DNA of 36,661 bases from Asterionella formosa (Eukaryota), in assembly GCA_002256025.1 (NCBI GenBank), contig NKIB01015301.1, positions 1-36,661 on the forward strand. The letters are read 5' to 3'. A program made the position numbers and the translations under genes. This document shows positions 7,901 through 28,246 of the stretch, in pieces. Position 1 is the first letter of the stretch. Each line of letters starts with the position of its first letter. Below the pieces are notes generated by a model. It did no database searches, had not been told where the DNA came from, and was given only the letters and a program-made list of their open reading frames with translations.

Positions 7901-7953
7901 ATGGGGCCGCCTACCCTTAGGGTTGCAGTCTCGATCGCCGCAATATCCGTCAT
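4936..7953 (-). CDS. WDR75: WD-repeat protein 75 / Utp17 (Nan1), t-UTP small-subunit processome component
   Basis: 1005-aa single ORF with VHWHAHPV, LYSGGEESVLVIWQL, VLPRV, CFSPDGSTLAI and a C-terminal LPSL...F motif typical of WDR75/Utp17. Confidence 0.85.
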   Translation of the reverse strand: MTDIAAIETATLRVGGPMLAKRDLHSRTKRKTHQDPVAWEILEPVIFDDGNEQFILLPNKRFVTVLAYKTGRKVAHFIPRRNGEEEHILIQSVCLANLPKKQTDIHLALQEQLNDDESDNDIDVSGDEDDAAMVSMETEEQILLVGCQDGSLREFALAELTSAKAVPQPNNPDCGTFQLSGPCFRPRRVFRMLDNLIINHLTAPTDLNLNDGTVLFSLSEKPCKDSDDDIPENVHLITQCLHRIMLPVFDKSLHQNLSTIQLKKKQVSLKEEIKCTVGFDKFGEYNNTSIFRLCSLSRKAHKQFSEQTNRDIFCVLARSNGFHIYHEHLGSTVSGVVTNRSPMLTFPAQDGDTLSSVVISPNGNDVTCGYWLGDVRVMTNVIPTVLDYHQQVIKADKDATEKPQQPYKSVLVRRVHWHAHPVMAMAYHGLSDAVEPMLYSGGEESVLVIWQLSKGTSGPADVLPRVALGGIVHIVAINPNGILIYCEDNSLQLVRAHNRKRIWKVHGLATPGNEATVLVDPKSDSHLVLTGLEGAPGCLHWFDPREEHVTCKLEVAPYNRVSRTEQADNPMPAPEVTQVAFSKSGDDVMTVEVIPTENAYVGAPRTYHDEELGTITAVKFWTHSPTTTDEGKRVPYVVSAVMTFPHGEENQVSSIALSPRGDVACTVSNDENAFRVWRRISAIPDEEDHTKSRRTPVWVCQYKVTTPAGFSNHSTSRGGACFSPDGSTLAICYGHLISLWNHKEAVLMHTIKHCDTNCIDSIQFISTTTNADMVMTISKSAVLVQSPFGSKGQKGWKCAVPPNCEDAAVLNAQFLVSHEMVAISTFFVKKQVTKVLLLDATSGTPNKSLIWELNGKVISVVATGKQKQTAAWVRVGEKLKEVKETPVRLFAVCSSGEMMLLKTCVDFEEELSPLSISSNDQHEEENVPRIYVPPQQKNRKRPRASSIVDEEPVTKRAPTVASLAAFMGDEVGGAILTTDLPSLGGAFTRAFVGRSLARSTRKGGE

Positions 7954-8030
7954 GGTTTCACTGAACTATGTGAAGTTACTCTGTGCAGGAGGGGGCTATA
8001 CCTACTTTCATTTACGGTTATGACATCTAG

Positions 8031-8073
8031 TACCGGTAGGGGACTACCAGGTACCGGGGTACCTGGTACCGTA
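8031..8073. repeat. Cluster of TA-CC(n)GG-TA palindromic units
   Basis: TA CCGG TA ggggac TA CCAGG TA CCGGGG TA CCTGG TA CCG TA. Confidence 0.8.
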
Positions 8074-8324
8074 GTTTTCATTGCATGTTGTGATGCTTTT
8101 GTCTTCTTCCTCCCCCTTTGTTTCTTCGCCTTCAAAATTATTGGGTGGAGCCTAAGGCTTGAATCACAAAAGGTTATGAGGAATTTGCCAATGCATGCAT
8201 CGCTGTGGTTTTACCTGGTAGGATTGCTTCTTACTTGGTACCCCTGTTACTGGTACTGTACCTGGCAGAGACCGCGTGATCTTCGTACATACCGGCAACT
8301 GGTTCCCAACCTGGTACCTGGTCC

Positions 8325-8412
8325 TTGCGGTCATTTTGCTCATACTAACATTTTAATCTCCGATAAAGATAGCTAAATCTTTAGTTTCAGCAAAATTTCC
8401 GCAACTTGCTGG
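8325..8412 (+). mobile_element. MITE-like family A, copy 1 (left end truncated)
   Basis: TTGCGGTCATTTTGC...GATAAAGATAGCTAAATCTTTAG..CAGCAAAATTTCCGCAACTTGCTGG matches the copies at 13.4 kb and 25.4 kb. Confidence 0.7.
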
Positions 8413-8878
8413 TGTCCCAGACCACCACAACTGGGAAATGAGCAGCCATACCAGTACGTGAGGATCCGTACCACCTACGTACAATCAAATTCTTACCTAT
8501 TTACTGCTTTGCTTCGTCCAAACATACAGCACGAGCGAGGTATCGGTACATAGAATAATGCATGGATGAATTACCGGTATAGGCCCGTAATGTTATGCAG
8601 TCTTTAGTCGTCAAAGTGCATGCGGGGGAAGAGTAATGAGCCCCTCAAATGCATGTTACACATGTGAGACACGTAACATCAATTTCTATTTTTAGCATTG
8701 GAATTTTCCCTTTTTCTGGTGTACAGGAGTATCAAAGTTGGTAATTCTATCGCAATAATACGCATTGGGGAACAAGCCGTTGCTTGCTATAGGTACTAAA
8801 TTGGAGTGCGAATTTATTTAAACTTGGACGTTTCTTGTGCAGGGTACAACACATTCATCATCTATGCATGAAAAAAAG

Positions 8879-9904
8879 TTAGGATTTCACCGTGACCCAA
8901 CTAGGCTTGGAGTCATCATAAGCTCGGCATGTATCTTCCTCGCATTTGGTACAGCCAACAGGATGTTTCCAAAATGTGGAATGTCCTTTCCCAGAACAAT
9001 CTCCGTCAAGACATTCATCTGTAGGCCGTCCATTGGTGTAGTAATACAAGGCCATGGATCTTCGTGCCCTTCCCTTGGGTGCTACCAACGGCTGAGGGTG
9101 CCCATGGTATGAAAAATCAGTCGTACTAAATACCACCACACGACCCAGAACGGGAAGGATACGCTGTACACAGCTGGTCAAGTCCTTCGACCAAAGTTCC
9201 AAATGTCCTCCATGGTCTTCAGACCAGTCGGGGTTTAGGTAAATAAAGGCATTGACTCGTCGATCAATGTTGTATTTGGGTCCATGCTTGTTAAAGTCGG
9301 CGTGTACCTGTAGTGATCCACCAGTAGCTGTAAAGTGAATTCCACTCCCCTTATAGTGAGGATCTGGAATAATCCCCACAATCCCTGACAGGTCTTCCAG
9401 AAAGGTGAGAAAGGGCGACGATTTCATAACTCCAAACAGAATTCTGGTATACACGCCCATCAAATCTTCGTGGTCAATATAGGATTTCTTATTTTGCTCA
9501 AAGTTCTGATAGCACGTCTTGTGGGCATTGTGCAAGCATCCACTGAGTACTTCCGATTCTGGGTTTTCTTTCAAAACTTGTTGCAGGATGGAATCAGGAA
9601 AGATGCCATCAATGGCAATGTGAGGGTATGGATCCCCCATGCTGTACTGTTGCTTGTACTGGTCTGAAATGGACTTGAGTCGTTCGGCAGATACTGCGGC
9701 GAAGAGCTCTTCAATGACAGACACTTGAATATCCTTGGTATGCTTGGTGTCCTTCATTTTTGCGTACAACAATGCTTCCGTGCACGCTGACGAAGAGTTC
9801 CAAAAGTACATGAGCAATGACGCGACCACGACGCTCCCTGCGATGAGCGGGATTGGCACTTGTCGTTTGGCGGCAGCATATCTCTTGGTGACGAACGGCG
9901 ACAT
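8879..9904 (-). CDS. 2OG-Fe(II) dioxygenase (2OG-FeII_Oxy_3 / prolyl-hydroxylase-like) with N-terminal membrane anchor
   Basis: HxD in LQVHADFN, RRVNAFIYLNPDW, GGHLELW, distal His in SYHGHP, RRSMALYYY (2OG-binding Arg); hydrophobic residues about 16-34. Confidence 0.9.
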   Translation of the reverse strand: MSPFVTKRYAAAKRQVPIPLIAGSVVVASLLMYFWNSSSACTEALLYAKMKDTKHTKDIQVSVIEELFAAVSAERLKSISDQYKQQYSMGDPYPHIAIDGIFPDSILQQVLKENPESEVLSGCLHNAHKTCYQNFEQNKKSYIDHEDLMGVYTRILFGVMKSSPFLTFLEDLSGIVGIIPDPHYKGSGIHFTATGGSLQVHADFNKHGPKYNIDRRVNAFIYLNPDWSEDHGGHLELWSKDLTSCVQRILPVLGRVVVFSTTDFSYHGHPQPLVAPKGRARRSMALYYYTNGRPTDECLDGDCSGKGHSTFWKHPVGCTKCEEDTCRAYDDSKPSWVTVKS

Positions 9905-10466
9905 GGTGGGGTAGTTTAATTAGTCCTGTCTTTAATATTACTACCGGTGCTAACAACAGAGGCTACCGGTAAATGTATGACTCAAATCAGCAAGATACAA
10001 GGAATTTGTCTACCGGTATGTTCTATGCATCAGAAATAATATTCCGGTAATCCGGTAATAGTGAGCGACACAACCTAACAAGAGATTCTTGTCTTACATC
10101 AGGATATGATCATGTATGTTTAATCATACACCGAGTCAAGTTGACAAAAGTGAGTGGCGGACTTGCGTTGATATGCAAGAATGGATATATAGAAGTTTAA
10201 AATCCCAATTCCATATAACAATGAGTACATTGATACTTTGATTTCGAACTAGGGGCGAAATAAATATCTTATAAATCGCATTAGTAAATCATTCGTTTTT
10301 TGCTTCTACTATTTTTTTTTCATTTATACCCGTATATGTAAAAAAACCCAAATGTTTTGCAAAGCTGCTTCGGTATGATAATACTGTATAAGACTATCAG
10401 CGGCAGTTTTGGGTCGTGCGTGCACAAATCCGAACCACTACAGCTGTCAATACAGTACTAACATCG

Positions 10467-11240
10467 GTGGCTAGTATGCATATACATAAAATGATGGATA
10501 GAAAGAAATGATTATGTTCATGATGTAGTATGGAAGTGGAGCATGTTTATAGTACCAGTAAATAAGAGTCTTTGCAACACCTGATGTGTTCTGGACTCTT
10601 GTTCAAACAGTGAACTGTAGGTTTACTGTACAATGAATAGTCTCTGTTTCAGACCACAGCAAATTGTGTGTGTTATTTGGGAGGAAAGTAGAAAGCAGCT
10701 TCAAAAATACCATTATTCAGATGGTGTTGCATTGTGCAACTAAAGCAATTTGACTTACTAGCTACTAGCAGTTGACTGGCTGGGATTGTTAATGGCAAGT
10801 GGATGAGTTCCCAAGATGATATATAGGATCATGGTGAAGTAGATAACAAGCAATGCTGCTATACAAAATGTATGGCTTGGAATGTTTGTTTGGAGCAGGA
10901 GCAATGTCTTTTTTGTTTGTACAAACAACCCAACATACATACAAGCAACTGTGCCAGTACTTCTACTTACTGGTCTACCATATCATGTTCAGCCCCCATC
11001 ATGAATGCATGCATGCATCATTCAGGAGCATTGCATGTGACTGCCAACTTATAATATAGTACTGATAATGGCCATCTCCAATGCACCATTCCAATCTCAC
11101 ACAGCAAAGCAAGGCAACAAGGAGGAAGTAACTACCAGTACAGGTATTGCAAGTAACAAAAACCACATCATGCAGGATGGCACAGCATCAGGGAACAAGC
11201 AATGCAGCCCTGCTAATGATAGGTGTTGGTGTTTGTTTGA
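10467..11240. other. CpG-free intergenic block, probable decayed methylated repeat/TE
   Basis: No CG dinucleotide found by eye between the CGs at 10465 and 11241; rich in TG/CA; no credible ORF. Confidence 0.6.
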
Positions 11241-11445
11241 CGAAAGCTGGTCTGTAGTCAGTACGGAATTTATTCATACCGCTACCGGTAGTAAGGTATT
11301 ATTTTGGTATACCAGCACTACCGGGAGCTTTACTAGTGCATAACGGTGGCATAAGTAAGAATATATTTTTGCCACATCAAAAACTCCGATTCTCTGAATT
11401 CATAAAAATTAAACAGCGCCGACCATCATCTGCTATATCATCACC

Positions 11446-12351
11446 ATGGCCACCATGGCGAGCGGACCAGACGAAGACTTACCAACGCTTATCCGTCGAA
11501 AGGATCATTTGAACATTCTCCGATATGTTCGCGCTCATCAGCTGAGAGATCCTGATCTTGTCATTGTGCACGCCAAGGCGCTGTTAGGGGACGACCTCCA
11601 GAAGAAGCTCAGTGATGAATCTGCCCGTCTAGCTGCACTAGAACAGACTTGCTTGGCTGCTCTAGACGTGCAAAATCACGAATTATCAGAGAAATGTCTC
11701 TCCAGGCTTTCAGAATCGGTTGGGAATGAAGCGACTCGATTTCGCATGTTGTTGGCACGTTGTCTGGAAAGTGCCGGGGACACGAGCGGTTCCAAGATTA
11801 TTTACGATGATCTTTTGAAAGACAACCCATCCAACCTCATGGCATTAAAACGCTTGTACTGCTTGTCTTCGACAGAAAAGGAAGCTGTCGAATCGCTCAA
11901 CAAATTTATTCAGCAAAACATTGCCGACCCCGCCGGCTGGTATGAAATGGCCAAACTACGTTTGAGCATGGGTGATTTCAAAGGAGCTGCTTACGCACTA
12001 GAGGAAGTTGTTTTGGCATGTCCATTGGACTCGTCGCTTCACTGTCAACTGGGTGAAGTGTATGCTACCCTGGGAGGTACTGAGAATTTGCTCCTGGCCC
12101 GAAGACACTTGTGTCAGAGTTTGGAACTTGACGATTCCAATCGACGGGCAATGTTCGGCCTGGTATCCGCTGGAAGCAATTACATTGAAGCCACAAAAGG
12201 GAAAAAGGACGCAGATGAACACGAAATTGAAGTTTCGAAGGAGCTGGTCAAGTACGGCGTTGAGAAGATTGGCATGGCTTACAAAGGCACCAAGATGAAT
12301 AGTGCCGTCCAAAGCGTGATGAAGGATCATTCGGATATTGCTAATCTCTAG
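11446..12351 (+). CDS. EMC2: ER membrane protein complex subunit 2 (TPR protein, TTC35)
   Basis: 301 aa; LEQ..LAALD, YDDLLKDNPSN..ALKR, GWYEMA.L....GDFKGAAYALEE.VL..P, LGEVYATLGGTENLLLARRH..SLEL..RAMFGL. Confidence 0.9.
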   Translation: MATMASGPDEDLPTLIRRKDHLNILRYVRAHQLRDPDLVIVHAKALLGDDLQKKLSDESARLAALEQTCLAALDVQNHELSEKCLSRLSESVGNEATRFRMLLARCLESAGDTSGSKIIYDDLLKDNPSNLMALKRLYCLSSTEKEAVESLNKFIQQNIADPAGWYEMAKLRLSMGDFKGAAYALEEVVLACPLDSSLHCQLGEVYATLGGTENLLLARRHLCQSLELDDSNRRAMFGLVSAGSNYIEATKGKKDADEHEIEVSKELVKYGVEKIGMAYKGTKMNSAVQSVMKDHSDIANL

Positions 12352-12635
12352 GAATATAAAATGTCATCGTTGATCCAAACTTTTCTCGAATGTTTTTATT
12401 CATGGTGAGAAGTTTTGAGAAACGGCATATGATTTAAAAAATTTACACTCCGAATATTGAAGGATCTGTCGATTTCGCTTACACATTGCCAATCGCTACT
12501 ACTCTGAACGAAGAAACCAAGAAGATGCGAATAATCTTCTTCTCTATCTTAAAACAAGGCGAAAATCCATAGTAGTTTCTACAGGAGCGAACGAGCAAAG
12601 AAAGAACCATCGATCTAAAATTGTTTTCAAAACTA

Positions 12636-13097
12636 TTAACTATTACTCTCAATTCGTTCAATCATGGCATCTACAGCTGTCTGCACTTTCTCTGGAGTGG
12701 ATTGACTATCATTCCACGCAGGTTTCAAATTGTCTTGTAACAAAAACCGCCCAACTAGATTTCCTTTATGGACTGTCAACCAATGCTTCTTCTCCACGGC
12801 ATCAAAGGATGTCCATATGCGAGCTTGGTCGACTTCGTAGGTTGGAAATTTCAACAGAAATGTGCCATCTCGTTGAAGCACAAGTCCCGTGTCAAGACCC
12901 GTTCGTTGGACCCATTCACTCCTAGATGTTTGCAAATGTTCTAAAACAAGTTGAGAGAGTGGATGGACATACTCTTTTGTTGTTGCCTTGATTGAAAGAT
13001 AGCGTTGAGGTAGAAATGGAATTGCTTTGGTGGAATGGCAATTTATGGAACCAATTATAGAAGTAACGCTTCGGCTTCGACCAATTGATGACAACAT
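12636..13097 (-). CDS. Hypothetical protein with a mitochondrial-presequence-like N-terminus
   Basis: 153-aa ATG ORF; N-terminus rich in S/R/I and lacking acidic residues, ending QRYLS; globular-looking core (HPLSQLVLEHLQ, RIWTSFD..KKHWL). Confidence 0.7.
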   Translation of the reverse strand: MLSSIGRSRSVTSIIGSINCHSTKAIPFLPQRYLSIKATTKEYVHPLSQLVLEHLQTSRSEWVQRTGLDTGLVLQRDGTFLLKFPTYEVDQARIWTSFDAVEKKHWLTVHKGNLVGRFLLQDNLKPAWNDSQSTPEKVQTAVDAMIERIESNS

Positions 13098-13201
13098 CTT
13101 TGGTCAACTAGAAATTTACAACCAAATGAAGGATGACACGAAAAAACGTCGCGGGTAAAACTTAAAAGCGAAGGGAGTTTTTTTGTAATCAACTACGACA
13201 G

Positions 13202-13247
13202 TACAAGTATTATTTTACGACATTACAAGTATTATTTTACGACATTA
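13202..13247 (+). repeat. 22-bp tandem duplication
   Basis: TACAAGTATTATTTTACGACAT x2. Confidence 0.9.
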
Positions 13248-13367
13248 TTAAGAAAGTGAATCAAAATCTAGGATACATACCGTATGAGAATAAACTACCG
13301 GTATAATGCTGAGCTGGAAGAAAGCAACGAAGACGAGGAGGATGGCGTGGCATACTGCGCAATTTTG

Positions 13368-13432
13368 GTAATTTTGCTGTAGCTAAAGATTTAGCTATCT
13401 TTATCCCAGTCAAAATGAGCGCAACTTGCTGG
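13368..13432 (-). mobile_element. MITE-like family A, copy 2 (minus orientation)
   Basis: Minus strand reads TA|CCAGCAAGTTGCGCTCATTTTG..GATAAAGATAGCTAAATCTTTAGCTACAGCAAAAT. Confidence 0.7.
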
Positions 13433-13459
13433 TATACAACTTACAACTGCAAGGTCCGG

Positions 13460-13496
13460 TAAAATAGAAATTTAGCTTTAAAATAGAAATTTAGCT
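13460..13496 (+). repeat. 19-bp tandem duplication
   Basis: TAAAATAGAAATTTAGCT(T) x2. Confidence 0.85.
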
Positions 13497-14017
13497 ACAT
13501 TTGCCTCATAATAAAAACCGTGATATATGGTTATTCACTAGGAGACGGGACTGATTTGAGTGTATATTTTAATGAGACGATGCTAATTATGATGCTTTAC
13601 GACCGAGTCATCCCCCTCCCCTCTCACGGAAAATGTTGATGTACAAAAATATTTGCATTATATTTTCTCTTGTTCCATACTCATGTGTTACTACCGGTAG
13701 ACCTTTTAATCGGATATCATAAAAATTTCTAATATTGCAAATGTGGTTACGAAAAAAGGTTAGAACCAACGAGATTCTTGATTTTCAAATTCAGGTTTGG
13801 GAGGAGAATGCTGTTATGATAATAAGCATTTGAGACACATTACTTCCTGCAGTACCTTGAAGATCATTTCATTGTTACTAGTTAAAAGCACCAAGTTCCT
13901 GCCTTTTGTACCTATAGCTATCTCTAGAGCCATTATTGCTTATCAAAAGGAAAAAAAACACTTGTTACATTGGCACGATATACATGATTCTCCAAGTCAC
14001 TTTTTGAATGTACGTTT

Positions 14018-14059
14018 TCCTAAACTAAATGTCAGCTATCCTAAACTAAATGTCAGCTA
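14018..14059 (+). repeat. 21-bp tandem duplication spanning the formamidase stop codon
   Basis: TCCTAAACTAAATGTCAGCTA x2. Confidence 0.9.
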
Positions 14060-15680
14060 CTTGCCAAGGCGAGGGTCGAGGGGCACAGCATCACCAACTG
14101 CCGCAATGCATACATTCTTTTCCACGACTCGAATGCCCCTAGCAAGTGCTTCGAGACCCTTTGTAGGACGAACGTCTTGATCGAAAATTGCCAATGGAAT
14201 GGCCAATGTGCAGACAGCATTTGGAACATCAACGATTCCACTGATGCGTCCTTCACAAGGGATGCAAGACAACATCAAGTACACCTGCTCCTCCGAATAT
14301 CCAAACTGAGCCAAATATTTGATGCAATTCAACACCGCTCTTTTGTATGCAATTGTTGCATCTGGGTGGTAACAAAATGTCAGTTTGTTTGATATGAATC
14401 GAAAAACACACTGAAATGGCACTGGCTTGACTTACCAAGGTAATGCTGGACTCCCTTCTCATCAACAGATATTCCCTCAAAGACCAGCCACTCCGAATAT
14501 CGTGGTCCAAGGGGGCCAAGTTCAAAAATGGGATTTACACACAGTGGACTGGGTCCAACGACTGGAAGTAGTTTCATACCGTCCTTGATGACGGTGCATT
14601 TGAGATCTAACCATCCCGACATTTCAATTGCACCACAGAAACTCACTTCGCCATCCCCTTGAGAAAAATGCATATCACCCATGGACAAATTGGCGCCAGG
14701 TACAAAAACAGGAAAGTATACAATTGAGCCACGAGACAAATTTTTGATATCACAGTTACCACCATTTTCGCGTCCAGGCACTGTTCGGGCGGCTTCCGAA
14801 GCAATCATATCCCATGCGTCGTCTATTCCTTGCTGATATAGTTATGAATATAATGTGTTGGGAATAAAATTATTACCACAAATTCCAGGTACTTTGGGTT
14901 CACATACCTTGTCTTTGAAATGCCCAAGCTTGCCAAGCATTGCACCTTTAGCTTCTGGAAGACATGCCAGCGGTCGAGTATGTAGACACCCGCAGAGCGT
15001 TGGTGCCTCGGGTGTTCCTTCCTTGGCACAAAGCGCACCTTCTCGCTCATTCCACATGGCAAGGAGTTCCGCACTTGGGGCTGTTCCGATCAATCCTGGG
15101 TGAATCAAACCAGCAAATTTCACCCCTGGAATGTGACGACTGGAACAATAGATTCCTTCCAAATCCCAAATCGCTTTCGTCGCATGTGGGAAGTGTTCCG
15201 TCAGGAATCCGCCTCCATTTTCCTTGGCAAATGACCCAGTAAAGCCCCATTCATCGCCATCCAAACATCCTAAATTCAATATTTCTACTTGGAGCAAATC
15301 TCCTGGTTGAGCACTTTCAATAGCAATGGGCCCACTTAGATAATGCACTTGTGACAAATCGACGTTTTTAACGTCATCAGCGCTATCGTTGTCTTTGATT
15401 TGGCCTCCCGTCCAATCCACACACTCGACACGAAAGACTTCCCCCTCACTGACACTAGCAACAGGAGGAATGTCTTGGTGGCAGTATCAACACGACATTA
15501 CGGTGAGAGCAATACGCACACAAGAATTTTGCGATCCTCAATTGGAAATGGTTTTGTTCATCAGATCCTTGGTTTTGCTCCAAGCAGCGGTGACGTACCA
15601 GGGTGCCATCGATTATGAAGCGGCGTTTCTTGATCCCACGGAGCAAGCTTCGGGTCAACAGAAATCAATTTCTTCACCAT
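14057..15680 (-). CDS. fmdA: Formamidase (FmdA/AmdA family), 4 exons: 15680-15599, 15473-14908, 14832-14436, 14361-14057 (449 aa)
   Basis: LHNRWHPDIPPV, ECVDWTGGQI, VHYLSGPI, ENGGGFL, HPGLIGTAPS, RENGGNCDIKNLSRGS, GDMHFSQGDGE, SGIVDVPNA; three GT-AG introns of 125, 75 and 74 bp restore one frame (1350 nt). Confidence 0.95.
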
Positions 15681-16090
15681 GGTCGAATGATTGATGCTTT
15701 ACTTGCAGGGGAGGAGGACAAAGAGGACGACAAAAAGAAAGGATATCGGATTATATCCAATTCCGAGTGAAAAGATTCTCGGAGCACTTGTTGCAGAACC
15801 TTAAGTTGCAAACTTCTGAAATAATGAGAGAATATATGATGAAAATGTTAGTCATCATCAGATTCTTTTTCACGAAGCAAACGGTGAAGGATATATGATA
15901 CGGCACTACACATGTGTACATGAGCAAAATGAATGCATTTAGGTAGATACATACTTCCGGTACTTATTACCGCATTTACCTGAGCAGCTTTCGGTTCGGA
16001 ATAATTATTAAATGTGTGGGGCTATTATAGATAGCCGAAGAATTATCGGAGCTAGTGCCTCATGAGAGCAGTAAGTTTGGTTGCAACTTC

Positions 16091-16117
16091 CCGGTACCTG
16101 GTACCAGGTACCAGGTA
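16091..16117. repeat. Tandem 7-bp CCWGG-TA array
   Basis: CCGG TA CCTGG TA CCAGG TA CCAGG TA. Confidence 0.85.
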
Positions 16118-16732
16118 TCGTACTTATGCCGGAACAGAGGGACTACCGGTACGCAGGTATGATATGTACTCCAACAATTAAAATGAATTCACACTTCATA
16201 CATGAGAAAAACAATTTCCAAGTGTACTGTACTGACAAGGTAGAGTTGTCTATAGACTATGCTTCGAGGAGCTAGTCAATCAAATGAAAGAATGGCACAG
16301 AAGAGCAGTTTTCACAAGTGCAATGTATTTTACAGTGATTATGTTGAGGACAAGGAGTGAAGCCAAACTGCGACTACATTAAGGTATTGTGCCCGACAGT
16401 TCTAATTAACTAGTTTCCTAATATGGCACTCAGGTTTGGATCAGGGCTTATCGAACATGTAGGTGCAAAGTACCTGACTCTGGTCCGTAAGTCGGTCAAC
16501 GAATGTACCTTTTCAGCATTTTTCTCGATTGTTTTTGCCGCATCATCACACCGAAGCACAATTACTTGTGAATGGGTTGGCACCAATAAACACCATGCCT
16601 GCACTTCCTTCACAATAGGTAGTCTCCTGATGTGAAGGAAGGAGAGGTAAAAACGCAGCTGATAGTGATGGAATCATAGTAACTGCAGTTTTCTGCCCAC
16701 CACCAGTCACCCATTTAACAAAAATGTTCGTA

Positions 16733-18730
16733 CTATTGCTCCTTAGTCCGTCGATGCAATGCTTGCCGGGTTTTAGCATCTTGAATTTTAACAACAGTGA
16801 CGACCACACGCTTTTTGATAAAGGTTGGCAGGCGTTGCACCAGAGCAGTGGCTTTTCCACTTGCCCACTCCTTGGTAACGGACAGTACATTTCGAAATCG
16901 AACTCGATTGGTGCGCTCGGTTGCATCGCCCTGATTTCGAAGCAATACCTCGCGAGCGATGGGAGCCCATTCTCGACTCAAACTCCAAGGGATATCCAAA
17001 CGGCTTGACAGACCCTTGATTAAAATGGTAGCACGACCCACCAATACCAGGTCCTGTGGGAAACTTTTTAATTCCTTGACAGGAGAGTTGGGACTCAATT
17101 CACCCTTGTCGTAACCACCAGGCAGGTTTTGTACTGATCCGTCAAAGAGCCACATGGCCACAGCCGCCGCCGCTTCGTCCTTGGCATCATCGTTAATTTC
17201 CACACCCAATTCAAGTGCAAGATTTCCAATTTTGGTCAAGTCCTCTGGATTGCCGTCACCAATTCTTTCATCCAAGGCAATCATGACCTTCGCAAGTGTT
17301 TCTCGATTCCGGCCTGAAATTTGTTTGACTTGACCAAAGTCAATAAGACCAACTTGGCCGTCCTCCAAAACAAAAATGTTACCTACAGATGAAAATAGGG
17401 TGTTAGAGATGTGACGATATGTAGAACAAACGTGACATACCTTGCAAGTAGATCAATAAAGGGCAATGGGGAGAAGCCTCATGAAAGGAAAATGTTTTGT
17501 CATCATTCGATTGATATGGAACTATTGAACTCACCTGGGTGGGGGTCTGTGTATGTTCAAAATATTCGAGTGAGTTTGATATATTTTCGTCACCAATATA
17601 AATCAATTTATTCCTATAAGCACAAACTGACCTGCATGAAAGAATCCAGTCTCCAGAATCGTTCGTCCAAAGACAGCCGTCAAGGCTGTCAATAGCCTCC
17701 GTCCAAACAACTTTGCCTCTGGACCAGCTGGATCTATTCCTTTCTTGATCATTTCGTCTCTTGCCCTGGACAACGGTACGCCATGTAGATAATCCATCAC
17801 CAACACTCGTCGACAAACCAATCCTGGTACAGGCCGTGGTATGACCAATGGTGCCTTTCTTGCACTTCCATTTGGCGAAATCGTAACAGACGTGTAAATC
17901 CGATCCATGGCAGCTGCTTCGGCAACAAAATCAAATTCATCAGCTAATTGTTTTTCTAGTTCACAAAAGACAGTATAGTAATCCAATGGCAATGCGTCTT
18001 GAAGGGCCTTGGATATTGTCTTTAGGTTGCTAATGTCCCCCATTAATTTCGATTCAATCGATGGTCTTTGAACTTTGACAGCCACTTCTTTAGGTCCACC
18101 ATACTTTGGAGTTAGTACTGCTCGATGTACTTGTGCCACCGAGGCGGCACCAAGTGGAATATCATCAAACTCGCTAAAGACCTCATGAAACTGTTCCCCC
18201 CCACCACGTAATAGCTCTTGCTCAATGACAGCCTTAACTAGCGTTACGGGCATGGGGTCAATATTGTCAGTGAATCCCCCAAGTGCGTCAGTGTATTGTT
18301 TCGGAAAAAGATCTTGTCGGGAGGCAATGATTTGAGCCGTTTTGACATAAAAGCCTTTCAATGACTCGATTGTGGCCGACAACGTTTGAGCACCTCGAAC
18401 ATGTTGTTGATCCCATGTGCGTTCCAATTGATCTGCTGTCATGATTTCTCCCAACACTTCTTGTCGGAATTGTAGTTCCAACATTGTACTGTAATACGAC
18501 GCAATGACGGGAACGGCAGTGGCCCAGAACTGACCGGCTCGCTTCAGTCGATCCACTCGAGATAGAGGAGGAGGAAATTCCGTGGACTTGTCTTGTTTTT
18601 GTGATGTGGGAGACAAGAAACGAGACGTGTCCACAACGTGCCGACTTGTGAGAGGAGAAAAGGCGAAAGCATTGCCACAACAACTACTCCACACAACCCA
18701 TAATAGTAGACATGGAAACAGATTCGTCAT
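16733..18730 (-). CDS. ABC1/UbiB-like atypical kinase (ABC1K), probably plastid-targeted; 3 exons: 18730-17632, 17546-17535, 17382-16733 (586 aa)
   Basis: LKGFYVKTAQIIASR.DL, PLGAASVAQVHRA, VAVKVQRP, EFDF..EA, spliced FFHADPHPGNIF, LIDFGQ; signal peptide followed by NAFAFSP. Confidence 0.92.
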
Positions 18731-19435
18731 GAGGGGCAGCTCTGGATTAATTTATAATGTGTTCAGTGGATACAGGAGATGCGGATTATTTTGTTCCTAA
18801 CTGGGTTGAGCCAATGCGGTGATCTAGGCTAAGAATATATTCATCGGTATTATTATATGTGTTCTGTAATGACAAGCAAGGCTGAAATGCGAGAGCACTA
18901 ATACCGTATGATATATCAGTATTGTTCAGCATCGTCATCATCATCATGCGGAGTAAGTGCTACTCCAATGATGTGCGCGTACTAGGATAGTTTTTCTTGA
19001 ACATCATATACCGGTATATACATAATCGTCAATAATGGCCTTGTATGAATTTGAGAATGAACGACGGCCGAGGCAGCATCGCTCAGCCAGTCGTGAAGGT
19101 TGTTACATATATTTAGTAATTGCACCGGTGCTATTTAAATATTTAAAACTAGATCTACACATTGGTAATCCAGCACATGATATGTATAATAAGGCTATGT
19201 ATTACTCGGAGTATGTACAGTTAATTATTACCGGTAGCTATACAAGTACCTTGGTACCGTATGCATTACGCATGTTCCATTCAGTACTGAAGAGTCAGAT
19301 TGATGACGAGGCAGGATATTGTCTCGTTTCCCTGACACCAATTCTGACTCATCCAAACAACAACAAAAAAAGCAACCCTGCTGTCTGCGCAATTCGCTCA
19401 TCTTAAACCAACTACGGGACATTTTTCTCTCTACA

Positions 19436-19670
19436 ATGAAGACCTTCAATAATCTCATTGCCATCATTGTTGGAACTGCAACTTCTGGTGTCTCTGCCTT
19501 TGTTCCACTTCCTACTAGCAGATCATTCTCTTCGTCTACTAGTGCAACTAAACTAGAAGCTGCTCCTATCATGGTACTTTACTGAACCATCAAGGTACGT
19601 ATTGTTTGTAATTCACATGTGAAATGATTTTGGGACTATACTCACCACCTTTACTAATCATACTTTCATG

Positions 19671-19753
<83 letters not shown>

Positions 19754-19960
19754 ACGATATAGACGGCCTTTGATACGGCCTCATATGCAATGGGTATGAC
19801 TGATAAAGTCAAGGGGACTGGTGTTTGGGGAGGATTTGAACTCGTACGTGAAGTGGACGACAATACAAGGACATTGAACGACAAGGCAAAAGTGGATGAC
19901 AAGATGTTGGTAGAGGAAAAGAAGGACGAGACTTCTCCTTCTTCATCAACTACCAAATAG
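19436..19960 (+). pseudogene. Small plastid-targeted protein (118 codons, exons 19436-19594 and 19763-19960) interrupted by an in-frame TGA at 19583-19585; pseudogene, recoded gene or sequence error
   Basis: MKTFNNLIAIIVGTATSGVSA-FVP presequence; ..AAPIMVLY*TIK then phase-0 intron GTACGT..TAG, then TAFDTASYAMGMTDKVKGTGVWGGFELVRE..TTK*. Confidence 0.75.
19671..19751. repeat. Compound microsatellite (AC)6(AT)34 inside the intron
   Basis: Read directly from the sequence. Confidence 0.95.
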
Positions 19961-20382
19961 CCGCTTGCAGTCGTGTGATGCATGTGTGTGTGTGCAAACT
20001 GCATACTTTTCATTGTTAATACACAAGTATTTGTTTTTGGGTGAACATTGAGAATGACGACAATGATTGGATCTATATTAGAAGGATTCATCTTGTCTGA
20101 AAAAAAGGGGTTGAAAAATTATTATTCCTTTCTGGATGGAATGATGATACTATTTACCCTTCAATTGATCCGACTCTATACAAAGGTACTAACCAAATGG
20201 TAAAACCGTAACTATCATCTCATTAATATTTTATAGTTCGCATTTGTGTTCAACACAATCCAATTTGGTACAAATTATATCCACATGTGACCAAGATATG
20301 TAATATCGACACGTTGAAAATCACAAACTACAGTTTACATCGCATAATAACTTCTTACTATAAAAAAGTGACTTAATGCCGA

Positions 20383-22395
20383 CTAATAGACTTTCTTCAT
20401 TTTCTTCTCCTTCTTTCGCCGCTTTCTCTCTTTTCGACGATGTCGTCGATCATCACTATCGGTGGACGCATCACTGAAGCTATAATCAGAAGACCGTCGG
20501 TTCTGCTTCCTTGATTTCTTGCTTTGCTTCATTTTATCACTTTTTGATTCCAAAACTTCAGATGGACTAGTTTTAGCCAGCATCGAACCAACTGCAATGT
20601 ATTGAAATGGATCCGAGTGGATCAATTCACTAGGCCTTGGCACTCCCGTTGGTAAAGGAGGTAAGATCGTACTTTCCGAGTCAAAAGGAGGACGTTCTGC
20701 AACTACATTGGATTCATCAGAGTCTGACGAATCCGATTCAGGTTGAAAGATTGACTGATACACCTTCCGGTCGGGTCTGGATTCTGCAGGTTCCATCATT
20801 TCTTCATGTTCATCCTTGCGAGCAAATACTGGTTTGGGGGCTCCGACAGCGTGCACCATGACATGTTTCTCAAAAAAGGACGCTTCGGCACCTAGTTTTG
20901 TTTCAAGTTTGGTAGACTTTGAATGACTAGGAGGCTTGACATTTAACCTTTTGCAAAGCAACGGATCGGGTATAAATAGCATTGTAGTTCGTGTCAACTT
21001 GATTTCTTTTCGTGCTTCTTTTCGAACTGGTTCCATGATGGGTTCTTTGGATTCGCTTTCAGGGTGAGAGAAGGGAACATGCAAGCCTGCAGGATGAGCT
21101 GCCTTCTCTTCCACTGAAGTTTGAGTACTAAATCGATTCTTCATTGCTTCTGCAAGTCCAACGAATGTTGAACCCGCCATCGCGCCGATCGGTTTTTCCT
21201 CTCGTTTCTTCTTGGTTGCTTTTTGTACTTTGTGAATAATCCGGTCCACCACAGATTCGGACCGGAACGTCTCAGGGCATTCGTTATCAGAAAAGACATG
21301 CCGTTTCAATTCAAAATTATGAGGGATATCAGGACCTGGATAGCGTTGTTGCGTTGACCTAGAACAAGCACCTCCAAGCACAAAGCCGGGTAGAACCTGT
21401 CTGCCATCCGATGTCAGGCCGCCACCTTTCTCTGCACCCACTGCATTCGAAGTTTCCGCCCACGACGAGAAGATACCTCCCACGTCGTAATTTGCTTTGG
21501 TGCTGGATTCTTCCTCGTCACTAATAGGATCATAAATTTCCACATCATAGTGTTCCTTGTCGATTTTGAAGGCGGACTCATCCTTGGGAAGGGGCGCTGC
21601 ATCGTAGACATCGTCATCATCTTCTCGTAATGCGAAACCACCTACAGACTTAGTCCCCACAAAGTCCTGCATCATTTCATGAGAAACATCGTAGTCATTG
21701 TCTTCGTCCAAATCGTCGGCTGGAGTTTCTCCTCGTTCGCTAGTCAAATCCGACAATCGGTACACATTACTTCCAGTTTTGTTAGTAACTGCTTTGATTC
21801 TCTCCTGAGCCTTCCGTCTCAATTGCTCACGATGTTTTTTAAATTCGGGTGCTTCCAAAAATGCATCATACCCAAGACCACAAGTATCAAGTTTTGGCAT
21901 CGGAAGCTTGACCAGCGTTTGCTGAAGTTGAATTCGCTTGAGCTTTCGATCTGACAGATGAGCTGCAATGTGGTCGTTACTTGATTTCTCGTTATTTGCC
22001 TCATGTGATGCTGGGACGTATGCAGTATCGCCATCTCTCCAACCTAACATTCTCAGTAATCGTTTACCAACATTGAGCGGAGGATCAATCGAAAAAAGAC
22101 TAGCCGCTGGTGGTGGTCGCAGTTTTGTTTCCGAAAAGTCTTGCTTCACGGACGTTGGTCCGCCCCATTCATTGAAATCTTGTTCGTCCATGAAATCCTC
22201 CATTTTCTGAGGCTTTCTGGAAAGTGATTTGTCGTCTGCATGCTCATGAGACTCGTTGCTTGGCTTGGGTGCCCAACCTTCTTTAGTGTCGACAGAGTTG
22301 AAATACCCTGCAGAAAAGCCCCCAGTAAATGCCCCGTGAAAGCGCTGTTGTTTCGTCCTTCGTTTCCCCGAAGGAACAAACAACGGGCGACTCAT
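20383..22395 (-). CDS. GPATCH1: G-patch domain protein 1 / TOUGH-like (DUF1604 + G-patch)
   Basis: RFHGAFTGGFSAGYFNSVDTKEGWAP, EDFMDEQD, VGKRLLRMLGWRDG..GLGY, PDPLLCKRLNV, K/R-rich C-terminus. Confidence 0.9.
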   Translation of the reverse strand: MSRPLFVPSGKRRTKQQRFHGAFTGGFSAGYFNSVDTKEGWAPKPSNESHEHADDKSLSRKPQKMEDFMDEQDFNEWGGPTSVKQDFSETKLRPPPAASLFSIDPPLNVGKRLLRMLGWRDGDTAYVPASHEANNEKSSNDHIAAHLSDRKLKRIQLQQTLVKLPMPKLDTCGLGYDAFLEAPEFKKHREQLRRKAQERIKAVTNKTGSNVYRLSDLTSERGETPADDLDEDNDYDVSHEMMQDFVGTKSVGGFALREDDDDVYDAAPLPKDESAFKIDKEHYDVEIYDPISDEEESSTKANYDVGGIFSSWAETSNAVGAEKGGGLTSDGRQVLPGFVLGGACSRSTQQRYPGPDIPHNFELKRHVFSDNECPETFRSESVVDRIIHKVQKATKKKREEKPIGAMAGSTFVGLAEAMKNRFSTQTSVEEKAAHPAGLHVPFSHPESESKEPIMEPVRKEARKEIKLTRTTMLFIPDPLLCKRLNVKPPSHSKSTKLETKLGAEASFFEKHVMVHAVGAPKPVFARKDEHEEMMEPAESRPDRKVYQSIFQPESDSSDSDESNVVAERPPFDSESTILPPLPTGVPRPSELIHSDPFQYIAVGSMLAKTSPSEVLESKSDKMKQSKKSRKQNRRSSDYSFSDASTDSDDRRHRRKERKRRKKEKKMKKVY

Positions 22396-22557
22396 CTTTA
22401 AAATGTAAAACTAGCACATTGACGGAGAGTCAAAAGTGAAGTATGGATGGAGAGCCAAGGAGCCGGTATATTAGATTTTTGATTAAAAATATATTAAAAA
22501 GGCTGCTCTTGCTGCGTTTGAAACCCTATATAGTCATACACGGTATAAATATATACA

Positions 22558-22710
22558 CATGGTGCTGTTGTGATGCACAAAAAGGATTCGGATGCCGCGA
22601 CTAACAACATGTTTTGTATTCAGACCGACAGAAAATTTGTTACAAATAAATATAAACCAGTATATACTATTCTTGTAACTCTCACACCCGACTTGGCTGC
22701 TCCAAGAAAT
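22558..22710 (+). repeat. Repeat family B, copy 1 (inverted relative to 25531-25671)
   Basis: Colinear shared blocks CATGG, TCGGATGCCGCGACT, ACATGTTTTGT, GAAAATTTGT, TGTAACTCTC, CCGACTT, TGGCTGCTCC, AGAAATT. Confidence 0.8.
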
Positions 22711-25399
22711 TAAGTGATAACCAGCAGACCGAATATTGTAGCACATCATTGTCCATCAGAATCTCACTCGTCCTCTTGCGCATTTTTGTACCGCCTCCTC
22801 TCTCTTGCAGAAGCAGCAATAACAATACTATGAGGAATGGGATAATTTGCAAGATAACTGACAAAATGAAAATCCAAGAAACATCCTTCAAGGCAGATAA
22901 CAGCAACCAGGCAAGGAATCAATTGGCAAAGATTTCAATCAATGCTACAATTATCAACAGAGCACCAGCCAGCAGGACTGGGGGAAGCAACAAACGGGTA
23001 GTTAAATGGACAGGTGTAGTGATGGAGATGAGGCAAATTGCGATTCGCAGATGCATGGTTGGGAGATCAATTTTGGAATAGTAAGCCATTGCATGCAGAT
23101 TGCCTAGTAAATGGCCTACAGATCCGTCAGATTGTTGTCAAAGTGCCCCAAAATATGTAAAAACCCAGTAGTCTCTAAGAATCATTAATTTCTATTGTTT
23201 GTTATCATTATACCTGTTCAATAGTTCACCAATGCAACCAAAAGCGCAACCATTGTCGATCAGCTGGTTGATTTAACATTGCTGTGGTTTTCTTGTGCTA
23301 TAATGTGCTTGAGGGGTATCTCAATGGCCGATTTTCCAAAATATAAAAAGATTGACATAAAGTAGTACTATAGGCATGATTTGTTGAGAGGCTCCACTAA
23401 GATTTCAGTGAAACTCGAAGAAGAAGTTTCACCTATAGGAATAATAGTTAAAACAGCCAAGAAAATAAGGTTGCATGTATAGTAGGAGTGAATATTTAGA
23501 GGAGATTGTAGTTCATCTTTTCCTATGGTAAACGGAGAAAAATAATTTTGTTGGTTGGCATTTGTTGACCAGTTTTTGGACGCCCCTCGCACATGTGATG
23601 CATAAGGTAATCATGCGTCATGTTACCAATAAACCGATCAGCATTATCAATGATGGTTGCATTGGATGAATAACTATAACAAATAAAACAACATGGATGA
23701 GGCCAATATTCTAACTAGCTAGCACAGTTTCTAGTCAATAAGTGGCTGATGGTATGATAACGGGAACGCACTATATTTATAGAGCATCTATGTGGTATGC
23801 ATCATCCCCCATTTTAGTGAGTATGTAAGGCTGCAGATGGAAAATTTCCATTAAATTTTTATACTACGTTAAAGCTATCCAATAATCGTACTCTTGCCAA
23901 CTTGAATGGACACAATTAGTACCGGTTTTATTCATCCATACAGTACAACGTGACCTGTCTCTTCACCAGCCTTTCCCCGGAACCCTAGGGACTATATAAA
24001 AGAAAGACTGGTGAAAAAATTCAGGAATCTAACCCTGCTGCACCTCATGAAGTGTGCTTTCCAATTAAACCATTCCCTTAAGGCTGCAGATGAATAGGTT
24101 TATTGTAGATTGTTGGACGCAAAATCCTTTTTTTTTGATACCACAAAATATTCCAAAAAGAACTTACTTTGGATGCAACACTATTCTTCAGCAGCACCTC
24201 CCAAATCGGGCCATCTGTAAATTTCCCAACACATGCTGGTCCCTTGGTTTCTTGGGTGCAATCAAATCATTGTCGCATCATCTTCTTCCTGTTCCACTTG
24301 TCATCAGCCCTCTTCCATGCAGTCACTCACCATCGAATCACGAACACCTCCTACTAATGGAAATTTATGAAGCAAGAGGGAGAGTTTGCTGAGCGAAGCT
24401 TGGAGTGGTTACTACACATCAAACCCAAACAATCAACCTACAGACAAGAGTTTGCTTTGTCACTGTCAAGGTCTCATCATTCAACGGGCTTAATAACCAA
24501 ATGTAACACTTACTGTGGTGCCACCCAACAATGTTGGGCTTTGTATGCTGTGCAAGGCCGATTGTCAAACTACAGTGGCAGAGGAATGATCATGGCTGAT
24601 GAAGCAACTAACAACAATGTGACAAGTGTATCATACATGGTGGGTCAGGTATCAGTATTTGAAAAAGCTTCATACTCCTTCCTGCATGCTGGGTTTCTTT
24701 GCGTAGATTTGTACATGCTAGTAGTACTCCCTAGTATCACTTACTTTTTCTCTGCTCTGCTTCTAGTAGTAGCCTTCCTCCTAGAAAAGCTAATTGGCCT
24801 TCCTGTCAATTCACACACTGTTCCCTGAATTGATAATCTAAAAATTATAAGCTAAGCTAAAGTTTCCTTTCTATGCATCTTTGCTTCCCACAATGTCGTT
24901 CTAAGACACTATATTCAGCTGATTGGCATGGCAATGCAAGATTTGACTCATTGGATTACAATCGAGTCCACAATCCTCTTGACTTAAGCTAATTTTCTTG
25001 ACAACAGTAAACCACCCTGCAAGAAATGCACATCTTGAGAAGCAACTTACTCCATGGTTCATATCTTGCCAGTCATGTTCATTGTTTCTATTCAAGATTT
25101 TTTTTAAATTCATCGCGGTTTTGTCAATTTACTTACGATTTTACTATTACCTACTATTTATTCAAATATTACATGTGCAATTTGATCGCTCATCAGAGCA
25201 GCCGGCCGATTCACGAACTTCCTCCGTCTAACTTTTAAGCAATGACTTGCTGGTAAGCTGCGTTTTGTATGCTTTGTTCATTTTAATATATGCATTGGAT
25301 AAAAGCACCCAGAAAGTCATTGACCTGATCGAGATCTCAGTCCGCTGCAGGACCAAAATTCTACAGTACCAGGTACCTGGTACCAGGCAGGTACAGGTA

Positions 25400-25499
25400 C
25401 CAGCAAGTTGCGGTCATTTTGCATAAATACGTGATTTTATATGAGATAAAGTCAGCTAAATATTTATCTTCTTTCAGCAAAATGACCGCAACTTGCAGG
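25400..25499 (+). mobile_element. MITE-like family A, copy 3 (most intact, about 100 bp)
   Basis: Perfect 20-bp inverted repeat GCAAGTTGCGGTCATTTTGC (25403-25422) and 25477-25496; left end TA|CCAG; preceded by a CCWGG-TA array at 25367-25399. Confidence 0.8.
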
Positions 25500-25530
25500 G
25501 ACCAGGTACCTGTTATACAAGGGCACCCCA

Positions 25531-25671
25531 AATTTCTCGGAGCAGCCACGGAAGTCGGAGAGAGAGTTACAGGATTACCGTTAGTATACAAATTTTCAGT
25601 CTGTAGGACAAAACATGTAACCAGTCGCGGCATCCGACCAGTATTTCTACATCACTCACAAGAGCTCCATG
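25531..25671 (-). repeat. Repeat family B, copy 2
   Basis: Reverse complement aligns by eye with 22558-22710. Confidence 0.8.
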
Positions 25672-26067
25672 CGTTTCAGGTTCGTAGATCATTGGTACAT
25701 AGATACTAATGACGACGTATTTACTTCGTATCAGAAAGACGCCCACCGGTATGTTCATGCAACCAATAGACCAAACTCGCGCTTGTCGGAGTTCTTCGGC
25801 TCGCTAAACGTCGTCCCAACTCGCTGGCGAGTCTCCCTTGACACAAATGTACCGAAATTTGCGTCCGTTGAGCTGAACCGTGGCATTGGTGTTCTTTGAC
25901 CGGTACCGGTATGATATATATTGGAGGAATCTTCCTTACCTGGTACCCGTACCTGGAAGCTGATGGATGGTGTACCATGCAATTTAGTCTAAACAATATT
26001 CGCCTAAATTTCTGTGCCACGAAACAAGATAACAGAATAAGCTTTTATTTCACAGCCGCAAGCAACG

Positions 26068-28246
26068 ATGAAGATGATAAAAGTTCCATCGACAATGAAA
26101 GTCCATGATAATCAGTACAGCAGGGCAGGTATGTTAAGTTTTGAGGAGCTTCGTGATGACATGACCAAATATCTTAACAATCTGTGTGTATGTTTCTATT
26201 GCAGGACAAATGGATACCCGAGATCCGCCTCCTTTGGCTTGGAGCATGCCAATCCAATGCGCTTGCGGAAAGCCAATTGTCCCTTCGGATAACCGAAAGA
26301 AAAATACTTCTTCTCTCGATGCCTTTGGAGGACTCTGCTACCCAAGTCTACTCATAACAGCTGTTACATCTTTCAGCGAAGAACGCAAAGAATCATCGTA
26401 CCATCATGAAAAGAATTCATTGGGTTTCCCGACAAGAAAGGGTGGCTCGTCAGCGTTAGATCAAAGTCTTAATGATCTGGGCCATATGTGTCACATGTGT
26501 GCGCAGCGATACAGAGACCAAGCAAGCATCCAAATTCTAAAAGAAGCCGTAAGTTTCTTTGTTTCGACAGGGGGGTGCACTTTAGAAAGGTACAAAGCTC
26601 ACCATTTGTAATTGTTGTTGAAAAATCAGATAAGTGGAAGCCAACTTGCTTCTGCCGCAAAAGGTCAAGATGAAGCTGGTGCTCTCACTATTCCACTTGG
26701 GCAAATTGAATTCTACAAGAATCGACAGATACAATTTGAGGAAATCAATCAACGAAGCCGTTCAGACTTTTTAGCCAAGTTGAAATTGAACTTGGCACCT
26801 ATTCTGCCCACAGCAAGGAATCGCTCGATCCCAATGCGAGCAAGAATACCCGCAGTATCAAGACCTTCAAATCAAGTGCTTACACAAACTTCAATTCCAC
26901 CTCTGTCACCAATCCTAACGAGATCATATTCCGATGGAACCATTGAGTCTTTGGTGGCTTTAACACTTTCGCCTAAATCTATTTTGAAGCAATCCACATA
27001 CGCACCAACTGGTATCGACATGAAAGCATCAACCTGCTCGTGTGACATGAGCACCACCACCAGGGGATCTACTTTAACCCAGTTGGCCAATAATGCAAAG
27101 TACAATCAACTTTATTCCACACTGGAAGCAGAATCTTCTGTGGAGGAAGCCCAAGGTCTCAGCGAAGGACTTTTGGAGGCTCTGTCGCAGGAAAGTCATC
27201 TTGAAATGACACTCCTGAATATAGTGAGTGTGGGGTCGGATGGGATAGAGTTGATCGAGCTGGAGACGTTGGACGATTCAGACGAAGCACTTGTAGAGTT
27301 TGTTGAGAACAAGCTCCAAGGACTACTAGACAATCCATCGCCACTGGGAAGTCAGGCAAACGAAGCACTTGTAGAGTTTGTTGAGAACAAGCTCAAAGGA
27401 CCACTAGACGATCCATCGCCACTGGAAAGTCAGACGAACGAAGCACTTGTAGAGTTTGTTGAGAACAAGCTCCAAGGACCACTAGACGATCCATCGCCAC
27501 TGGAAAGTCAGACGAACCAAGCACCTGAAGTAGAGTTTGTTGAGAACAACCTCCATGGACTACTAGACGATCCATTGCTACTGGAAAGTCAGACGAACGA
27601 AGCTCTTGTAGAGTTTGTTGAGAACAAGCTCGAAGGACTACTAGACGATCCATCGCCACTGGAAATTCAGACGAACAAAGCACCTGTAGAGTTTGTTGAG
27701 AACAAGCTCGAAGGACCAGTAGACGATTCATCGCCACTGGAAAGTCAGACGAACGAAGCAGTGGTAGAGTTTGTTGAGAACAAACTTGAAGGATCAGTAG
27801 ACGATCCATTGCTACAGGAAAGTCAGACGAACGAAGCCACTGTCGAAAAAGAGACTATTCGTGCCCCCCTCTCTCTTGACGCGGATCGCGTACGCTATTT
27901 TAGCATTTTCGATTATGAGAAAGTAGTGGTTGCCGTCTCCACAGAAGAAGCGGAAGCTCAAGCTGCTGCTTATAGAATTTGTCCCGAACAAGGCGCTGAA
28001 TGTAATGGCAAGAATCCCAATATCTTTCAATTACGTACCACTGTATTTGGTGAATCCCAATCTAGCAGAGTTGAGGGGAGAGATGATGATGGGGATGGCT
28101 CGGAATGCTCAATCATTGAGGTACAAGGAACAACGAACGAGAAAACTGGCGTGGAACGAACCATTAGTGAGGAAAGGGTGGGTTGGTTCACAGATTGTCA
28201 CATTTCTACCTTTGTCTTAACCTTGTGTCACAGATATCGAGGATAA
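26068..28246 (+). CDS. Hypothetical protein with Cys-containing N-terminus and acidic 26-aa tandem repeats; exons 26068-26128, 26205-26548, 26630-28246 (possible extra intron 28178-28233 extending to TGA 28314)
   Basis: Phase-compatible introns 26129-26204 (GTATGT..TTGCAG) and 26549-26629 (GTAAGT..CTCAC..CAG) join three ORFs and remove the TAA at 26609-26611. Confidence 0.65.
27283..27839 (+). repeat. Coding minisatellite, 78-bp unit x about 7 (EALVEFVENKLQGPLDDPSPLESQTN)
   Basis: Unit starts at 27283, 27361, 27439, 27517 (81-bp unit), 27598, 27676, 27754 and a partial unit at 27832. Confidence 0.95.

Follow-up and report, generated by a model that had tools for sequence, protein, structure and literature searches.

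Short palindromic units of the form TA-CC(N)GG-TA, in which the core is CCGG or CCWGG (W, A or T), are scattered and stacked through a 36,661-nucleotide stretch of Asterionella formosa DNA (contig NKIB01015301.1 of assembly GCA_002256025.1, positions 1 to 36,661; hereafter the window). On balance, we favor the view that these micro-insertions are scars left by a transposon that duplicates TA, and that family A, a non-coding miniature inverted-repeat transposable element (MITE) of approximately 90 bases, duplicates CWG and lands in the scars. The repeat tract that surrounds one of its copies would thus have been used, not made, by the MITE.

In the window, the lists of enriched 8- and 9-mers are headed by TACCGGTA, with 15 matches against 0.18 expected (no shuffle reached 15), and by TACCWGGTA, found 10 times where 100 shuffles averaged 0.10 and none reached 10. 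Strict TACC(N)GGTA sites number 25 in 36.7 kb, with 20 lying outside stop-to-stop frames of at least 150 codons, four in a 151-codon frame without a Pfam match (7921-8376), and the remaining one near the start of the stop-to-stop frame 595-1737. The only enriched TA-X-TA words were those in which X is CCGG, CCWGG or a one-base-short variant of these, i.e., CCAG, CTGG, CAGG or CCG. Of the 62 CCGG sites, 36 had TA on at least one side, as did 31 of the 59 CCWGG sites, and TA-bounded CCAGG and CCTGG, which are mutual reverse complements, were found four and six times, respectively. Among the entries listed by a literature search, none dealt with CC(N)GG/TA motifs in diatoms, and the text matches to TACCGGTA look like primer or barcode letters. 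Clusters and stacks of the units are found as follows, with the strand given here and below only for features to which one was assigned:

8031 to 8074: cluster TACCGGTA...TACCAGGTACCGGGGTACCTGGTACCGTAG, 240 bases upstream of family A copy 1.
16093 to 16117: stacked tract (G)GTA-CCTGG-TA-CCAGG-TA-CCAGG-TA, read from the sequence and the repeat scan.
25900 to 25957: two small stacks, CCGGTACCGGTA at 25900-25911 and TACCTGGTACCCGTACCTGG at 25937-25956.

Contigs of four sequencing runs from four studies (X2, X6, X7 and X8) were compared over positions 7900-26100, with 12 of the 123 indel entries covered. Two isolated units were found to differ between runs:

13692 to 13699: isolated TACCGGTA, TA in some strains (6-base indel); the alleles are TACCGGTA and TA.
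16144 to 16151: isolated TACCGGTA, variable in X6; 4 + 2 letters are absent at 16146 and 16151, giving TA-T.

At 13692, six letters (TACCGG) were gone in X2 (depth 153.5 of 153.5) and X6 (446 of 446) but were retained in both X7 and X8. Variation at 16144 was seen in one of the four runs, X6, and two of the three isolated TACCGGTA sites within 13373-16208 varied in that run. The same comparison revealed a 21-base tandem duplication at 14018-14059 that lacks one unit in X2, X6 and X8, which is an ordinary slippage polymorphism and contrasts with the TA-bounded indels. At 13568, X6 carries four extra letters, TTAA, after TATATTT, and these may represent either slippage or a TTAA-type scar.

A further instance was found inside family A itself, the ends of which were read in six copies: copies 1 to 3 of the window, and L003, L042 and L097 of metagenome contigs. 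The L097 copy contains CCAG-TA-CCTGG-TA-CCGG-TA directly after an internal TA, amounting to 15-19 bases depending on the alignment, whereas all four of the other full copies have plain sequence at this point. Given that the family consensus represents the older state, the L097 stack is an insertion, and one that has become stacked. The feature that characterizes an excision footprint, i.e., a short filler between TA copies that is missing from the empty allele, was seen both at 13692 and at this stack. At approximately 339-348, a TA in L097 is also followed by a second, 10-base insertion (CTGGTTGGTA). This insertion is TA-bounded with a non-canonical filler, and could represent either a double unit that has decayed or a scar left by some other element. 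An earlier note on this DNA had read the TA-CC(W)GG-TA chains as serial excision footprints of the resident MITE. The part of that claim concerning insertions at TA that stack is supported by the indels at 13692 and 16144 and by the L097 stack, but the part that makes the MITE their source is not.

The relationship between the units and family A can be seen most directly at copy 3. Positions 25367-25399 read TA-CCAGG-TA-CCTGG-TA-CCAGG-CAGG-TA-CAGG-TA and run straight into CCAGCAAGTTGCGG; on re-reading the sequence, both these letters and the right end at 13434 proved to be as previously described. Tandem Repeats Finder reported a period-7 array of 6 copies with 76% matches at 25366-25403. The region is composed of the following features:

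25366 to 25400: left part of a GTACCWG tract, reading GTACCAG GTACCTG GTACCAG GCAG GTACAG GTAC, with two decayed units.
25401 to 25403, forward strand: left 3-base duplication, CAG, the same as at 25496-25498; family similarity ends here.
25404 to 25495, forward strand: family A copy 3, 92 bases; its terminal inverted repeats, each 19 bases long and matching perfectly, occupy 25404-25422 and 25477-25495.
25496 to 25498, forward strand: right 3-base duplication, CAG, read from the sequence.
25499 to 25512: continuation of the tract past the MITE, GGACCAG GTACCTG, which is GGACCAGGTACCTG.

As the tract resumes beyond copy 3, this copy interrupted a tract that already existed. When copy 3 and one CAG are taken out, the site reads ...GGTACAGGTAC-CAG-GGACCAGGTACCTG (the tail of the left part being GGTAC), and the tract as a whole (25366-25512) is a stack of approximately eight GTACCWG units, some of them decayed. 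The suggestion that copy 3 had built the adjacent chain is thereby contradicted. Two other candidates in this region were rejected. Rfam gave five hairpin-type microRNA matches on 25200-25700, all far below their gathering scores (e.g., 32.3 vs. 139.7 bits), and a possible solo right end of family A at approximately 25245-25255 yielded local alignment scores of 16-22, compared with a null maximum of 30.

The inverted repeat of family A starts CAAGTTGCGG, and a 3-base CWG repeat is found on each flank of the element. With three or fewer mismatches allowed, the inverted repeat had four matches in the window, compared with 0.02 expected. The two remaining copies of the window are:

8321 to 8408, forward strand: family A copy 1, with CTG at 8318-8320 and 8409-8411; the left repeat has diverged over its first 4 bases (GTCC).
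13358 to 13428, forward strand: family A copy 2; the right end is intact and is followed by CTG (13429-13431) and then GTA, while the left end is decayed and its flank unscorable.

A metagenome scan with a degenerate end pattern returned at least 120 loci and, among those listed, three belonged to family A and 117 were chance matches. A tighter end pattern gave 54 loci in genome contigs and four in viral contigs, none of which had family A features. The three metagenome copies lie in DNA with the same GGTACC-rich motifs as the window.

In the alignment of all six copies, similarity ends at the 3-base CWG on either side. The flanking triplets of the five scorable copies are:

Copy 1: left CTG, right CTG.
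Copy 3: left CAG, right CAG.
L097: left CAG, right CAG.
L003: left CT(T)G, with one extra T; right CTG.
L042: left CTG, right CAG, differing in W.

The triplets are thus identical in three of the five copies (1, 3 and L097), and in four the two ends carry the same middle letter W when read on one strand. Since the target GGTAC-CWG-GTACC is itself palindromic, only W distinguishes a duplication from an inverted repeat, and the presence of the same W at both ends in four of five copies is as in a target-site duplication and unlike complementary inverted-repeat ends. It follows from the identical, non-complementary W that CCAG/CTGG is not part of the inverted repeat, contrary to the proposal of a MITE with TA|CCAG ends; that boundary was read off the letters and was not itself observed. 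The proposed TA duplication is likewise unsupported by the copies. Although the right end of copy 2 reads ...CAACTTGCTGG|TA, ending at 13434, it is the only one of the six in which TA follows the right-hand CWGG, and L042 is flanked by AATCTG (left) and CAGGTC (right), i.e., by neither TACC nor GGTA in the respective positions. In no copy do both of the proposed ends carry TA, a caveat that the earlier note had itself entered and that holds for all six. Termini other than CCAG/CTGG with a TA duplication, as read here, are also what that note had named as evidence against its own proposal.

Sequencing runs provided additional information on the sites that family A occupies. Contigs from elsewhere in the genome that arrive at the left end of the element finish in ...TTACCAGCAAG, and those that continue past its right end have a consensus of approximately ACCAGGTAC (four runs, many contigs; in run X2, 35 such contigs at 8413 with an agreement of 0.39). 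The latter consensus fits a target GGTAC|CWG|GTACC, and the continuations at both ends suggest that most copies sit in such tracts. Run contigs bridge copy 2 (X8) and copy 3 (X6) with the element present. In a scan of the window for short inverted repeats, family A alone was found near the tracts. We also considered CCWGCWGG, a double-CWG scar that family A excision might leave, but its four matches compared with 1.37 expected, 7 of 100 shuffles reached four, and none lay in a tract, so that it received no support.

We propose that family A would duplicate CWG on insertion, in the manner of NuwaI-type PIF/Harbinger elements, and that it would target the CCWGG core of the units, copy 3 having landed in an existing tract that it did not build. 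By analogy with known transposons, the units themselves may be excision scars of one or more TA-duplicating cut-and-paste elements with ends beginning CC(A). Cleavage would occur 2 or 3 bases inside the element end, as in mariner-like elements, in which the 5'-side break has been placed 2 or 3 nucleotides inside the end (PMC2642840). Two bases kept per end would then give TA-CC+GG-TA, while three-base overhangs meeting at one mismatched base would give TA-CC(A/T)GG-TA, much as Sleeping Beauty leaves the scar TAC(A/T)GTA. Stacks could grow by repeated use of the scar's TA, possibly helped by slippage.

Stowaway-type MITEs are derived from Tc1/mariner elements and duplicate TA. Family A is similar to them in that it is small, non-coding, bounded by terminal inverted repeats and present in many places, but its duplication is CWG and not TA. 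Closer parallels for the duplication are found among other elements. CWG duplications define NuwaI, which is reported from animals only and has inverted repeats that usually start GGG (PMC4482050), and Harbinger3_DR integrates into a palindrome centered on CCWGG (PMC3016246). Family A shares with NuwaI the flanking 3-base CWG target-site duplication (PMC4482050), and with Harbinger3_DR a CCWGG-centered target, as it sits in TACCWGG(TA) contexts (PMC3016246). It differs from NuwaI as there described in that it occurs in a diatom-like genome and not in an animal (PMC4482050). The flanks of the family A target are GGTAC/GTACC and not AAACA/TCTTT. By this analogy, family A appears to work like a CWG-duplicating PHIS element, and we do not assign it as a member of NuwaI.

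The units in turn resemble Tc1/mariner footprints in that a duplicated TA bounds a short palindromic filler with A or T in its middle and in that their sizes fit 2-3 bases per end; in addition, the CC(N)GG sites differ by insertion or deletion at TA. In canonical Sleeping Beauty footprints, cag or ctg stands between the TAs (PMC5224488), whereas the filler here is CC(W)GG and not CWG. The units also differ from Tc1/mariner footprints in their very high density and their stacking into tracts, and in that no element with matching ends was found in the window and no excision was seen. PHISTA and ESTA, described from fungi, also duplicate TA (PMC12730594), so the scar-maker need not be a mariner element. 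The CMCT clade, which includes ESTA, is there said to have mostly CA..TG ends, unlike the CC..GG ends expected here (PMC12730594). Excision footprints and CWG-duplicating elements are both already known kinds of structure; what is unusual here is that the TA-bounded units are so dense and uniform, that they stack into tracts, and that a second, CWG-duplicating family uses those tracts.

Several other explanations have to be weighed against this proposal. Had family A been a TA-duplicating MITE, Tc1/mariner or Stowaway-like, with CCAG...CTGG ends, its repeated insertion and excision might have written the adjacent chain, and ends beginning CCA would indeed yield exactly the observed scars. TA|CCAG at the left of copy 3, CTGG|TA at the right of copy 2 and TACC before WG on the left in four of six copies are all compatible with such ends. 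However, the non-complementary W, the single right-hand TA, the L042 flanks and the resumption of the tract past copy 3, as expected for insertion into a tract, render this model very improbable, and we regard it as close to refuted. The tracts might alternatively be ordinary 7-base minisatellites that arose by slippage from a single seed unit, without repeated visits by a transposon. Consistent with this, Tandem Repeats Finder reports period-7 arrays, and the nearby 21-base tandem unit (14018) differs in copy number between runs. Neighboring units share a TA in three pairs in the window, compared with 0.58 expected for random TA use (34 of 2000 simulations reached three), so that either some preference for the scar's TA or slippage is needed. 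All three pairs are CCWGG-CCWGG, and five of seven such pairs in the window and the L003, L042 and L097 loci are identical. Over all adjacent units of these four sources, five pairs are identical and four different, and in both respects slippage may contribute, which counts against the scar proposal. Slippage is, however, unable to make isolated TACCGGTA sites or TA/TACCGGTA alleles, and it is further contradicted by the four unlike pairs and by the mixing of 6- and 7-base units within one stack (16093-16117, L003 327-355 and L097 374-388). As a full account of the tracts, we consider it unlikely.

Break repair at TA without any transposon, either by templated insertion that copies existing tract units or by a site-specific enzyme that adds units, would be in keeping with the failure to find a source element in the window, and would allow one event to produce a multi-unit stack such as that of L097. 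However, the duplicated TA and the 2- or 3-base pattern match known transposase chemistry, and we know of no mechanism that adds a fixed CCGG or CCWGG plus a TA duplication, which counts against this explanation and leaves it with a low probability in our estimation. Finally, the palindromes could be cis-regulatory or methylation-target words under selection in promoters, in which case the link to TA would belong to the binding site. In favor of this, none of the credible sites is coding, and each word is a perfect palindrome with CG or CWG in it. Yet the units arise as 6-7-base indels and not as point changes, a MITE copy has acquired one internally, head-to-tail stacks are formed, and two of three isolated sites in one region vary in X6. 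Selection may act later, but this leaves the origin of the units unexplained, and we hold such an explanation to be highly improbable.

The proposal of TA-duplicator scars that family A uses as targets has also to contend with a number of observations that weigh against it. A search of the window for TA|CC...GG|TA elements gave three matches with an inverted repeat of at least 12 bases and four with at least 9, all of which were either chance matches or simply the palindromic motifs. Pfam detected no transposase domain in the 38 frames scanned (of 69 frames of at least 90 codons in the window), and a Myb/SANT partner gene was not found there either. As these searches gave neither such an element nor a transposase, the scar model stands without its element. 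The plain 3-base mariner-scar words TACCATA, TATGGTA and TACCATGGTA were not enriched in the window, and 14 of the 15 isolated TA-bounded sites in the window are CCGG, alongside neighbor pairs that are all CCWGG. The strain indels at 13692 and 16144 can be read as gains or as losses. With respect to family A, only six copies are readable and one pair of triplets (L042) disagrees in W; its inverted repeat starts CAAG and not GGG, as is usual for NuwaI (PMC4482050). No empty family A site was seen among the 15 of 189 joint entries and 12 of 123 indel entries covered from the runs. The left flank is GGTAC in four of six copies, while an intact GTACC is found on the right in none, an asymmetry that the proposal does not explain. 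The genome-wide consensus of loose ends does show GTACC on the right, and the asymmetry of the six copies may be due to chance or orientation bias.

The window is otherwise compact and eukaryotic, and its long open frames encode ordinary cell proteins, among them a WDR75-like protein, RNase HII, MatE, an ABC1 kinase and formamidase. The formamidase/acetamidase gene (Pfam FmdA_AmdA) lies on the reverse strand at 14060-15486 across three consecutive frames, the frame changes being likely due to short introns or frame breaks. Beside the tract at copy 3, a non-coding stretch at 23075-24895 (possibly 22570-25655) has a summed contig depth approximately 8-40 times that of its single-copy neighbors in all four runs, and is therefore a repeated element; no frame within 23075-24895 matched Pfam, and a 48-base inverted repeat with 77% complementarity (22570-22617 and 25608-25655) may bound it. 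At 27204-27920, seven tandem copies of a 78-base unit occupy the open frame 26612-28246, the protein of which has 26-residue repeats and no firm Pfam match. An 83-base near-perfect hairpin at 228-310, with 21-base arms (CTTCATTGTCCTGGGCCCCCC and its complement) and no clear flanking duplication, could be a further small element of the inverted-repeat kind. Positions 19683-19751 form a perfect (AT)34 microsatellite, at which the run contigs break.

In contrast to the relationship previously envisaged, the causal arrow is reversed, in that the MITE uses the repeat tract and does not make it. More tentatively, one may picture a two-tier ecology in which the dense CC(W)GG scars of a TA-duplicator stack into GGTACCW tracts with a CCWGG core that are preferred landing pads for a CWG-duplicating family of a kind so far known only from animals, and give rise to more than half of the intergenic CCGG/CCWGG sites; this broader scheme is possible, although we would not put it at even chances. 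With a CWG-duplicating family outside animals, this type of target would be known from a wider range of organisms. If the scar reading is true, transposon excision would be a main source of short palindromes in the intergenic DNA of this alga, and the scars would steer the landing of a second transposon family; few examples would show so clearly how one mobile element can shape the targets available to another.

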